64,000 bases of DNA from Vulcanimicrobiota bacterium. Lineage in GTDB: Bacteria; Vulcanimicrobiota; Vulcanimicrobiia; Vulcanimicrobiales; Vulcanimicrobiaceae. The notes under the pieces were generated by a model. That model made no database searches. It was not told where the DNA came from and saw only the letters and a list, made by a program, of their open reading frames with translations. The stretch spans positions 759,049-823,048 of the forward strand of contig CAWEIR010000003.1 in assembly GCA_963809255.1 (NCBI GenBank), given 5' to 3'. Positions 3,248 to 15,231 of the stretch are shown piece by piece; position 1 is the first letter of the stretch, and every line of letters begins with the position of its first letter. The translations under genes were made by a program, and so were the position numbers.

Positions 3248-3325
3248 TCTGCCTTACTATAAACCGCCGCGGGTCGAGGCGTCGATGCGTTTGACGCGAT
3301 GCCGAGGAGGCAGCGCAGCAGGAGC

Positions 3326-3470
3326 GGCCAGGGGCCCGGGCGTCCATGCGGCGGGGCGTGCGAAGGAGGAGCGGAGGCAGGATGCCGGGAGCGACGACGA
3401 GCCGAGTAGCTTTTTCGCACGATGCGAAAAAGCGAGCGTCCCCGCAGCATGGACGCGCGGGCCCCTGGCC
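3326..3470. repeat. 145-nt structured imperfect palindrome, copy E1 (sigma-factor gene | alaS spacer)
   Basis: The 26-nt arms 3326-3351 and 3445-3470 are 24/26 complementary. The 93-nt core 3352-3444 is 85/93 identical without gaps to 14219-14311. A perfect inner 11-bp hairpin GCTTTTTCGCA/TGCGAAAAAGC lies at 3409-3433. Confidence 0.85.
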
Positions 3471-3486
3471 GCGGCGCCGGCGCGCG

Positions 3487-4290
3487 CTATTCGGCTAGAA
3501 CGGCGCGGAGCTTGTCGAGCGCCTTGGCTTGGAGGCGCGAGACGTGCATCTGCGAGACGTTGAGGCGCTTGGCGATCTCCGTCTGCGACACCGACTCGTA
3601 AAAGCGAAGGTAGATGATCACACGCTCTCGGCCGGTGAGTACCCGAAAGGCCTGTTCGAGATTCGCGCGATCTTCGAGGAGCTCGAGGCCGGCGTCGGCG
3701 ATGCCGACGGTGTCCGCGAGCGTCTGCGACTTTTTATCGGTCTCGCCGGAGATTTCGCTATCGAGCGAAAGGAGGTTATAAGCCTGACCGAGTTCCTGTG
3801 CCTCCAAAATCTCGTCTTCGCCCGCTCGGAGGTGCTCGGCCAACTCGGTTACCGTCGGGCTGCGGCCAAGCGATATCGAGAGCTTATCGCTCGCGCGGTT
3901 GACGGCGAGATTGAGCTCCTGCAGGCGGCGAGGCACCTTCACCGCCCAGCCCTTATCGCGAAAGTATCGCTTGATCTCGCCGACGATCGTCGGCGTCGCG
4001 TACGTCGTGAACTCGACGCCGCGTTCGAGATCGAAACGGTCGATCGCTTTGAGCAGTCCTACCGTTCCGACTTGCACCAAGTCGTCGAGCGGCTCTCCAC
4101 GATTGGCAAATCTCACTGCGAGAAAACGCACGAGATTGAGATGAACGACGGCGAGTTCCTCGCGCAACCGTTCGTATTGCGAATCCGGGGCCGCATTGTG
4201 TTGCGAGTACTGCTCGCGCCGCTCGATGAAGCGCTCGAAGAGGGCGCGGGTCCGCTCGCGGTCGCGTCGCGCTTGCTCCCGTTCTTGCAC
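3487..4290 (-). CDS. RNA polymerase sigma factor, SigB/SigF/SigG (group 3) type
   Basis: 267 aa with a GTG start. Region 2 DLVQVGTVGLLKAIDRFD and TYATPTIVGEIKRYFRD, region 4 SQTEIAKRLNVSQMHVSRLQ. Lies directly downstream of the anti-sigma kinase and STAS antagonist genes. Confidence 0.9.
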   Translation of the reverse strand: MQEREQARRDRERTRALFERFIERREQYSQHNAAPDSQYERLREELAVVHLNLVRFLAVRFANRGEPLDDLVQVGTVGLLKAIDRFDLERGVEFTTYATPTIVGEIKRYFRDKGWAVKVPRRLQELNLAVNRASDKLSISLGRSPTVTELAEHLRAGEDEILEAQELGQAYNLLSLDSEISGETDKKSQTLADTVGIADAGLELLEDRANLEQAFRVLTGRERVIIYLRFYESVSQTEIAKRLNVSQMHVSRLQAKALDKLRAVLAE

Positions 4291-12280: not shown

Positions 12281-14130
<1,850 letters not shown>

Positions 14131-14192
14131 CTTTCTATACGTTCCTTACTAAAAGCGTGCGCGGTTCTAAAGAGGAGATTGAGCGGTCGGCT

Positions 14193-14337
14193 GGAGCGAG
14201 AGGCACACGCCGGTGCTCCGGGGCGTGTGAAGGAGGAGCGAAGCCAGGATGGCGAGAGCGACGACGAACCGAGTAGCTTTTTCGCTGGATGCGAAAAAGC
14301 GAGCGTCCCCGGGGCACCGGCATGTGCCTCTTGCTCC
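14193..14337. repeat. 145-nt structured imperfect palindrome, copy E2 (atpG | atpD spacer)
   Basis: The arms 14193-14218 and 14312-14337 are 23/26 complementary. The core 14219-14311 is 85/93 identical to E1. The inner hairpin lies at 14277-14301. The element starts 6 nt after the atpG stop. Confidence 0.85.
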
Positions 14338-14343
14338 AAGAGA

Positions 14344-15231
14344 TCACTCTACGCCCAGCGCCTCCGCGCCGCCGACGATTTCTAGGAGCTCCTTGGTAAT
14401 TGCGGCTTGGCGGGCGTTGTTCATGGCGATCGTTAGTTCGTCGATCAGCTTTGAGGCGTTGTCGGTGGCGTTGGTCATTGCGACGAGCTGTGCGGCGAAA
14501 AATGCGGCATCGGTTTCGAGCATTGCCGAGTAGAGCGTGAACTCGAGATACTTGGGCAGCAGGCGGGAGAGTACGAACTCCGGGCTTGGAGAAAACTCGA
14601 CGGCGCCGCGAGTGGCGCGGCTCTGCTCCTGGAGGGGGTCGGTACCGGCGAAAGCCTTTAGATCTTCGGCGAGCACGGGCACGAGCTTACGCGTTTCGGG
14701 GCGCTGCGACATCATCGATACGAGCTTCTGCGAGACGACGACGATCTGGGAGATGGTGCCGTGCACGAAGTCGTCGGCTACGCGATTGGCGACCTCGCGC
14801 GCCGTGATAATCTTTGATGCGCCGAGCGGCCAGGTTGGATGTTCCGAGACGCCCATCCGTCGCACGGCATTACGCGCCTTGAGACCAACCGTGTAGTAAC
14901 GAACGCCGCTGCGGCCGCGGGCGAAGCTCTCGGCTGCGTGAATGACGTTGGAGTTGAAGGCGCCGGCTAGCCCCTTATCCGCGCTCATGAGAACGATGCC
15001 GGTGGGCGCGCTCTCGTTCCCCGGTTTCATGAATGGGTGATCGACGGACGAAACCGCCGCCATCAAGTCCGCAAGCATCTCCGCGAGCGCGTCTGCGTAA
15101 GGACGAGCGCGCTTGCGCGCCTCTTCGGCGCGCCGAATCTTTGCCGCGGCGACCTGCTTCATCGCTTTGGTGATCTGTTGAGTATTCTTGAGCGACCGGA
15201 TGCGGTCGCGCAGATCTCGTACCGACGGCAT
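14344..15231 (-). CDS. atpG: F1 ATP synthase subunit gamma
   Basis: 295 aa. N-terminus LRDRIRSLKNTQQITKAMKQVAAAK and C-terminus QAAITKELLEIVGGAEAL are typical of gamma. Confidence 0.93.
   Translation of the reverse strand: MPSVRDLRDRIRSLKNTQQITKAMKQVAAAKIRRAEEARKRARPYADALAEMLADLMAAVSSVDHPFMKPGNESAPTGIVLMSADKGLAGAFNSNVIHAAESFARGRSGVRYYTVGLKARNAVRRMGVSEHPTWPLGASKIITAREVANRVADDFVHGTISQIVVVSQKLVSMMSQRPETRKLVPVLAEDLKAFAGTDPLQEQSRATRGAVEFSPSPEFVLSRLLPKYLEFTLYSAMLETDAAFFAAQLVAMTNATDNASKLIDELTIAMNNARQAAITKELLEIVGGAEALGVE

Follow-up and report, generated by a model that had tools for sequence, protein, structure and literature searches.

Element E2 is a 145-nt hairpin (positions 14193-14337) that lies in the gap between atpG and atpD (14131-14343) on a 64,000-nt stretch of DNA, hereafter the window, which corresponds to C3:759049-823048 of a 3.3-Mb, four-contig metagenome-assembled genome (MAG) of a Vulcanimicrobiota bacterium (GCA_963809255.1, coded G000 and 96.8% complete). 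The original prediction, made from the letters of the window alone, suggested for E2 a role in segmental mRNA stability or translational tuning of the atp operon, between cistrons of different stoichiometry (gamma 1, alpha/beta 3): a long hairpin would be combined with a tract resembling an anti-Shine-Dalgarno (anti-SD) sequence, which could pair with downstream Shine-Dalgarno (SD) sequences. Comparison with related genomes points to another reading: E2 is very probably one copy of a lineage-specific repeat family, and the tract that it places in the atp mRNA is very probably incidental.

The account that we prefer, and that seems on balance probable when taken as a whole, treats E2 as a resident copy of a non-coding hairpin repeat of the Eremiobacterota (Vulcanimicrobiota), a lineage of soil bacteria, and not as a device built for the atp operon. 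Its asymmetric core consists of two small hairpins and purine-rich single-stranded tracts, GGAGGAG among them, closed by a long stem. The stem may be extended, and its arms kept alike, by templated copying, either fold-back or arm-to-arm, and the loop may flip through recombination or template switching between the arms, so that both orientations would come to stand at one locus in different species. The element would act, or be recognized, as a folded single strand, which would place it nearer to DNA repeats such as repetitive extragenic palindromes (REPs) or the Ssn motifs than to an mRNA operator. This mechanistic part, with its single-strand form and templated arms, is more tentative, and its chances fall a little short of even.

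A dispersed family with a conserved core

The conserved core of E2 spans 92 nt, and its '+' sense was defined as the GAAGGAGGAG strand, with GGAGGAG on top. Besides E2, the source genome carries the core at C1:68631-68722 (100% identity), in element E1 of the window (91%) and at C1:3341-3465 (93%, with an insert), making four copies in total, whose arms are unalignable beyond about 12 nt and yet complementary within each pair. The same block was found in 21 of the 24 same-genus genomes, at 1-11 copies each, and in 29 of 41 relatives the match ran between the same boundaries, query positions 6/7-98. When 185,579 species representatives were scanned with a pattern, 48 exact matches were returned, nearly all of them in Eremiobacterota MAGs; the small hairpin P-a served as the pattern, and its invariance in that set is partly owed to the way the set was selected. 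Identity between cores is 85-97%, and at the same orthologous loci the core is better conserved than the arms.

Across 42 copies, arm length averages 44 nt and the number of Watson-Crick pairs 36, and arms from different loci are unrelated; only the innermost 12 bp or so of the stem are common to the copies, the remainder being locus-specific, and no conserved motif was found in the arms beyond these inner 12 nt. Pairing is nevertheless maintained. In a 41-copy alignment, 94.1% of cells were paired, against 77.4% in shuffled alignments and 35-48% with slid partners, cells with a double change numbered 295 against 82 in shuffles, and compensatory changes were seen in 22 of 22 arm pairs. Within the core, the second small hairpin, P-b, covaries through the forms GCCA/UGGC, GGCA/UGCC, GCCC/GGGC and GCCU/GGGC, with pair 55/64 present as CG in 37 copies and GC in four, and pair 57/62 as AU in 30, CG in eight and UG in three.

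The copies are lodged at the ends of genes. Relative to the '+' core, the flanking genes are arranged as '--' in 24 cases, '++' in eight and convergently in four, and never divergently; the distance from the upstream gene's stop codon to the palindrome, which abuts or overlaps it, is -28 to +16 nt, and the next start codon is farther off. Five sites recur: atpG-atpD, NuoD-NuoE, NuoK-NuoL, a sigma-70-family gene followed by alaS, and a CDF transporter gene followed by a thiolase gene.

Several other descriptions of the family were considered and set aside. A phage origin was rejected, the core pattern having been found in no viral contig. A coding core was suggested by the plus-strand AAGGAGG followed by AUG; 13 of 41 cores, the GGAGGGC variants, lack this AUG, and the substitutions show no synonymous bias. 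A search of the window against Rfam gave no match at the gathering score and, at E<=10, only plant miRNA precursors, which are generic long hairpins. Neither a sigma-70-like promoter nor an intrinsic terminator was found in 13800-14700.

Some side observations bear on the history of the family. The E2 core is 100% identical to that of the copy between the CDF transporter and thiolase genes (C1:68631-68722), and the orthologous cores of these two loci in G017 show several differences both from each other and from those of the source genome; the identity of the two G000 cores suggests core-to-core gene conversion or re-copying inside the genome. In G035, which belongs to another family of the class and holds a diverged form of the core with 18 hits, the core sits inside a 270-420-nt repeat that is 82-88% identical, arms included, among seven sampled copies (L118-L124), carries outer inverted repeats of its own and appears to be actively spread. 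This composite repeat suggests a mobile ancestry. A larger family, B, is represented in G000 by 15 copies (for example at C3:348065-348200, C1:140305-140439 and C2:329585-329716) and has a 32-nt module in common with the E2 core. Its members are palindromes of 95-140 nt with one or two 38-nt units (GGAGCGnAGCCnGGATGGCGGAGCGA) in common with the E2 core; the similarity of their arms fades outward (CTCTGATTAAT...GTGCGTGATGC) while pairing stays compensated, and every copy stands at the 3' end of a gene (five convergent, eight '--', two '++').

The atpG-atpD junction and its anti-SD-like tract

Recomputed spacers in the atp operon, which lies on the minus strand, are 12 nt for atpB-atpE, 6 for atpE-atpF', -4 for atpF'-atpF, -23 for atpF-atpH, 167 for atpH-atpA, 3 for atpA-atpG, 213 for atpG-atpD and -8 for atpD-atpC, in agreement with the earlier statement that atpH-atpA and atpG-atpD are the sole long junctions and that the others do not exceed 12 nt. 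Both long gaps are indeed filled by palindromes; the one at atpH-atpA (E3), however, is unrelated in type to E2. E2 begins 6 nt past the atpG stop, as had been noted, the strongly paired stem starting at 14337 in the mRNA sense. The hairpin itself is genuine and highly stable: a folding energy of -110.5 kcal/mol was computed for the junction RNA, and one of -85.5 +/- 4.7 kcal/mol for shuffled sequences (z = -5.3; none of 200 shuffles equalled it), and the E2 duplex folds in both senses, at -98 kcal/mol in the plus and -87 kcal/mol in the minus sense.

This junction is occupied very differently in 24 same-genus genomes. Five (G005, G002, G013, G014 and G021) have a short junction free of palindromes, with 39-74 nt between the stop and an anchor some 12 nt into atpD. 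Element-free relatives (as seen in G005, G013 and G002) keep ...CTCGCTAA... and TAAGGAA, and with it the same native AAGGAA SD, before atpD. Because the same block occurs in these relatives, the ribosome-binding site (RBS) block after E2 is native and not part of the element, and a TAGTAAGG block downstream of E1 and E2, at one stage a candidate element part, was rejected as being this native atpD RBS. A further 11 of the 24 junctions bear palindromes of 187-234 nt, whose cores are of at least four types. G000, G019 and G016 share one orientation of the E2-type core, which is inverted in G017; G011 and G004 have a second type, of which G018 has the inverted form; a third, with the 32-nt module, occurs in G022 and G015, and further types in G007 and G009. 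The second type (ATTTTCGGAAGAGCAAGCTTTGAAGAAAACATCCTGTT...) is unrelated to E2 and has CAGGAUG-type hairpin loops on one strand. When filled atpG-atpD sites were set against empty ones, no direct duplication was seen at the filled sites.

At six of the 24 junctions, a conserved open reading frame (ORF) of 103-104 aa stands between atpG and atpD. The ORF (MG.VVVAYRPKPG...LFAGFEA.N) is present in G012, G006, G008, G010, G020 and G024 (loci L042, L047, L052, L055, L056 and L063); its start overlaps the atpG stop, a remnant persists in G023, and a search of the 104-aa product against Pfam gave no match.

Where a palindrome is present in the relatives, its far arm contains, in exact reverse complement, the final 6-9 coding nucleotides of atpG together with the stop codon. 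The exact inverted copy extends over 46 nt in G017, 28 in G019, 23 in G011, 22 in G004, 18 in G022 and 13 in G009, and it matches each species' own codons (GTCGAGTGA, GTTGAGTGA, GTTGCGTAA or GTAGAGTGA). The C-terminus of AtpG, EALGVE*, is present in element-free genomes too; copying therefore went from the gene to the arm and not the other way. The outermost layer of the stem has decayed in G000, where the stem of E2 begins 6 nt beyond the stop.

Both orientations of the core occur at four of the five conserved sites, namely atpG-atpD and three of the four others. In G017, the closest relative with the E2-type element at this junction (AtpG 94% identical), the whole loop is inverted, and the atp mRNA carries GGGAGGAG, within ...GGGAGGAGCGAAGCCAGGAUGG..., in place of the C-rich tract. 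The ratio of '--' to '++' copies is about 5:4 at sigma-alaS, about 8-9:1 at nuoD-nuoE and about 3:2 at CDF-thiolase, and at nuoK-nuoL it is 6:0 as called, or 7:0 with L092, which the gene caller left unassigned. Three assemblies with identical AtpG (this MAG, ENA ERZ25039484 and Logan SRR28042117) have an identical E2 in one orientation. The flips look like rare evolutionary events rather than rapid switching, since same-strain assemblies agree and nuoK-nuoL and nuoD-nuoE are strongly one-sided.

The tract for which a regulatory role had been proposed was correctly located: GAAGGAGGAG stands at 14229-14238 and again at 3362-3371 in E1, and the minus strand reads ...CUUCGCUCCUCCUUCAC.... The two occurrences are not independent, because the tract belongs to the repeated core. 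Its likeness to the 3' end of 16S rRNA is also borne out, as the 3' tail in G000 is GGAUCACCUCCUUUCUAA and the CUCCUCCUUC / CUCCUCCUU tract has 7 nt (CCUCCUU) in common with it. As to the proposed pairing with a downstream SD, the nested ensemble leaves the tract unpaired (probability 0.66-1.0 per base) within a multiloop that the stem of about 31 bp closes, and 0.0 pairs are expected with the 20 nt before the atpD AUG, pseudoknots lying outside the model; the atpD SD, AAGGAA, has only about five bases complementary to the tract. The atp mRNA shows the conserved GGAGGAG motif in complement, as the CUCCUCC tract, solely through the present orientation of the core. A selected SD-sequestering role of the tract is unlikely on the strength of these comparisons.

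Strand constraint and competing explanations

The clearest constraint on the stem concerns one strand. Arm-mismatch scoring treats G·T and A·C alike, an A·C on the '+' strand being a G·U on the '-' strand, and over the first 32 stem positions the '+' strand has 60 G·T against 13 A·C. With orthologous copies collapsed to unique events and stem positions 5-27 retained, 45 G·T stand against five A·C (p = 4e-9), in favour of the GGAGG strand. The sign is the same whichever strand is transcribed, with 28 against five events where the host mRNA has the '-' sense and 12 against zero where it has the '+' sense. The whole element folds better in the '+' sense in 42 of 42 copies, a result that is partly compositional, given the G-rich strand; reliance was therefore placed on mismatch counts and on arms-only folds, in which the core is swapped for a neutral tetraloop and the '+' sense is the better in 38 of 42 copies, including 27 of 29 '--' copies. 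This shows the GGAGG strand to be the well-folded, constrained one, irrespective of how the site is transcribed in the host; in E2 that strand is antisense to atp. Pairing is not optimized in the atp mRNA sense, because the G·T mismatches favour the GGAGG strand even in hosts with the '-' sense. A transcription-linked deamination bias would predict the opposite sign in '--' copies. A lagging-template model finds no support: orientation does not follow the replication strand, the counts relative to local skew being 2:2 for family A and 8:7 for family B, with small numbers and a weak GC skew.

Two of the competing explanations give the tract a function at atpD. The model in which E2 is an adaptive cis-regulator of the atp operon, with a stabilizing or processing hairpin and a tract sequestering the atpD SD that together set the gamma:beta stoichiometry, is very unlikely, even though it can call on a real and very stable hairpin adjoining the atpG stop codon, on a tract that has CCUCCUU of the 16S tail and is predicted to be single-stranded, and on the G000 orientation in three of the four genomes with an E2-type element at this junction. 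Neither the fixed orientation nor the regular presence at the atpD RBS that would mark a cis-operator was found among the relatives: G017 has the element in inverted form and 11 of 24 junctions lack it (five empty, six with the ORF), which speaks against the claim that it tunes atp expression or stoichiometry. Absence from close relatives had itself been named as evidence that would weaken the proposal, and five same-genus genomes do without the element, with a short spacer and the same SD. The same core also sits at unrelated junctions in both orientations, the strand favoured by its wobble pairs is antisense to atp, and to these are added the lack of RBS pairs in the nested ensemble and the SD complement of about 5 nt. 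Were the core instead an invertible switch, flipping often within populations, an SD-like and an anti-SD-like tract would alternate upstream of atpD by phase variation, for which a short asymmetric segment between long inverted repeats, found in two orientations at four of five conserved sites, provides the expected architecture. The single orientation in three independent assemblies of one strain and the lopsided counts at nuoK-nuoL and nuoD-nuoE point to rare flips and make such a switch highly improbable.

The remaining two look to the RNA at large. The core might be a mere vehicle for a generic mRNA hairpin, whose duplex would serve in either orientation as an RNase III processing site or a 3'-exonuclease barrier in long bioenergetic operons (atp, nuo); copies are enriched in the nuo and atp operons and always right after a stop codon, the E2 duplex forms in both senses, arm pairing is kept across species, and an RNase III gene is present, in this very window (C3:807751-808125). 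Such a hairpin would leave unexplained both the 85-97% conservation of a 92-nt core and the one-strand wobble mismatches, found even where that strand is not mRNA, and relatives lack the element at the same junction, so that as an explanation of E2 it is unlikely. As an effect on atp it is plausible: an intercistronic duplex of about 31 bp could be cleaved by RNase III, hold up exonucleases or hinder ribosomes as they terminate, and the E2 stem starts inside the ribosome footprint of the atpG stop. Alternatively, the plus (GGAGG) sense could function as a structured RNA, such as a protein-binding module of the kind that CsrA/RsmA binds. In the manner of such ligands, P-b (C-CAGGAUG-G) always presents GGA in its loop, and retains it as the hairpin covaries, while P-a does so in about half of the copies (~55%); the tolerance of G·U and a tandem G·A adjoining the closing helix are RNA-like; and csrA is present in G000 and in 29 of 29 relatives with hits, with no hits in seven genomes without it. 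That correlation is confounded by phylogeny (in the distant family f3, 2/4 versus 0/7), GGA is to be expected in any purine-rich tract, and Rfam gives no match. Moreover, the GGA sense is mostly antisense to host genes, the plus sense being antisense to both neighbours in 24-29 of 38 copies, which argues against CsrA acting through the host mRNAs, and no common promoter was found. A structured RNA is, on this evidence, decidedly unlikely.

The reading of E2 as an incidental family copy with a single-strand form has difficulties of its own. Templated growth of the arms is deduced from end states. Neither a reader for the strand asymmetry nor a mobilizing enzyme came to light, a Y1/RAYT transposase having been found nowhere in G000. 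Low copy number, conservation of several sites across species and core identity of 85-97%, which is above the neutral expectation, fit a benefit to the host as well as or better than selfish spread. Lastly, 29 of 38 transcribed copies place the C-rich sense in the mRNA, which may be a meaningful bias or a matter of ancestry.

Known repeat systems and the surroundings of E2

The E2 family is an unnamed, lineage-specific group of conserved-core hairpin repeats of a REP-like kind. REP units are 20-40 bp long, with a conserved stem and a GTAG or CGTC end tag (PMC3733652), and REPs, BIMEs and REPINs, associated with RAYT (Y1 HUH) transposases, occur in tens to hundreds of copies (PMC3733652, PMC3116915, PMC3479197); transcribed REPs have reported effects on mRNA decay and translation, and RNA processing, a block to exonucleases and disturbed termination are known for them too, the hypotheses being summarized in PMC3733652. 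Like REPs, which are extragenic palindromes between unidirectional or convergent genes, the E2 family is placed right past stop codons, and REPs are recognized as folded single strands with a defined orientation, as the E2 family may be. E2 differs in its unit of 145 nt, in having a conserved 92-nt loop or core and a locus-specific stem, in lacking a terminal GTAG (one CGTC lies at the core-arm boundary and not at the hairpin end) and in a copy number of 1-11 per genome. The Y1 transposase domain PF01797 had no match in G000, in a search that detected its positive controls. Miniature inverted-repeat transposable elements (MITEs) are also small, non-coding, palindromic, dispersed and intergenic, and in G035 the arms are conserved between copies; in the present genus, in contrast, arms are unrelated across loci, there are no shared terminal inverted repeats, and no partner insertion sequence was seen.

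Closer in one respect are the Ssn-related motifs (SRMs; NTS/dRS3), directional hairpin repeats that are cut as single-stranded DNA (ssDNA) by small GIY-YIG nucleases (PMC11893778). They act as one DNA strand independently of transcription, and the identity of their loop is unimportant, loop extensions being tolerated (PMC11893778). The E2 family is directional too, as the 45 against five wobble events for the GGAGG strand and the 38 of 42 arms-only folds attest. The SRM pattern HGTCWYN(0-2)YYVSBRHN(0-5)WNVSBRGN(0-2)RNCYNB, on the other hand, matches neither E1 nor E2 on either strand, with 20 matches genome-wide, and E2-family elements do not adjoin GIY-YIG genes. The connection is a lead and not a claim of membership.

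Small GIY-YIG proteins are encoded in the source genome, by three single-domain ORFs whose best matching structures are UPF0213; NCBIfam gave them no name, one of the three query sequences being a wrong-frame guess. Two of the genes, at C2:1174766-1174984 and C2:1093614-1093832, are flanked by inverted sets of a GTCATCCTGAG repeat, much as an ssnA gene (cd10448 GIY-YIG) stands between motifs in the Ssn/SRM systems; the third is at C3:260222. This repeat, GTCATCCTGAG(CGCAGTCGAAGGA), is a hairpin with about 160 copies in G000 (TGTCATCCTGAGCGCAGTCGAAGGA...), many of them arranged in tandem and many with stem extensions specific to the locus (for example C2:716140-716300 and C2:289121-289200), and none in the window; its unit is embedded in variant family-A cores.

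Short loops within inverted repeats are also found in either orientation among close relatives in the 'flip-flop' inversions of non-coding plastid hairpins, and imperfect palindromes in Escherichia coli are corrected or extended by arm copying in quasipalindrome template-switch mutagenesis. Those are mutational events of arbitrary hairpins, unlike E2, whose loop is a conserved dispersed family. It is conceivable, if rather doubtful, that the E2 type constitutes an undescribed class of repeat: a conserved, strand-specific single-strand hairpin, as ssDNA or RNA, that would lodge at stop codons, build and keep up its locus-specific stem by fold-back copying of the neighbouring gene end, flip without a dedicated invertase and be read by a structure-specific protein, for which the small GIY-YIG nucleases of the source genome, with a related high-copy repeat at their flanks, are candidates.

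For the atp operon, the consequence is deflationary, in that the anti-SD look-alike is the reverse complement of a repeat motif and does not warrant annotation as a regulator. Of greater interest is the element as a repeat: it reverses the logic usual among REPs and MITEs, with a conserved loop and a stem private to each locus, and it is unusual for arms to copy the last codons of the neighbouring gene, for loops to flip between species and for one strand to be favoured in folding regardless of transcription. Should a reader protein exist, it could represent a further system of single-strand-specific DNA or RNA recognition in an uncultured phylum. In practice, such elements fragment assemblies and create spurious ORFs in essential operons.

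Features of the atpG-atpD junction and of related elements (positions in the window; MFE, minimum free energy)
Feature	Position	Strand	Basis or remark
atpG stop codon (UGA)	14344-14346	-	ORF 14344-15231
E2 arm next to atpG (5' arm in atp mRNA), locus-specific	14307-14337	-	MFE partner 14193-14223
Conserved 92-nt family core; GGGG and CCCC ends form the closing helix	14220-14311	+	Fixed match boundaries
GAAGGAGGAG tract, CUCCUCCUUC in atp mRNA	14229-14238	+	Invariant in core alignment; predicted unpaired in multiloop
Hairpin P-b, GCCA-GGA-UGGC	14243-14253	+	Pairs covary across copies
Hairpin P-a, GCUUUUUCGC-UGGAU-GCGAAAAAGC	14276-14300	+	MFE fold
E2 arm next to atpD (3' arm in atp mRNA)	14193-14223	-	MFE folds
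Native spacer remnant with atpD RBS, AAGGAA at 14142-14147	14131-14192	-	Outside element
atpD start codon (AUG)	14128-14130	-	ORF
E1 core, sister copy, sigma-70-family gene-alaS	3353-3443	+	E2 orientation; unrelated arms 3301-3356 and 3440-3495
E3, atpH-atpA	16735-16920		Copies at C3:775783, C2:513451, C2:1429088 and C2:379040

E3 is an ordinary MITE-like repeat, its four genome copies being 80-93% identical end to end over about 165 nt, arms included; one of its strands folds 13-35 kcal/mol better than the other. Downstream of E2, a single extra T at 13685-13690 (GTCGTTCAAC in the window, GTCG-TCGAC elsewhere) divides atpD between two ORFs that overlap, 13591-14130 and 12693-13967. In an independent ENA assembly that encodes an identical AtpG, atpD is intact at 478 aa, and the split most probably reflects a mistake in assembly or a lesion private to the strain and not a pseudogene. 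On contig C3, the cumulative GC skew has its minimum near 830 kb, about 7 kb past the right end of the window, with negative skew on the left of about 830 kb and positive skew on its right. Just beyond the window, near C3 ~830,000, there may be a replication origin, in which case the minus-strand atp, sigma and alaS genes would be co-directional with replication.

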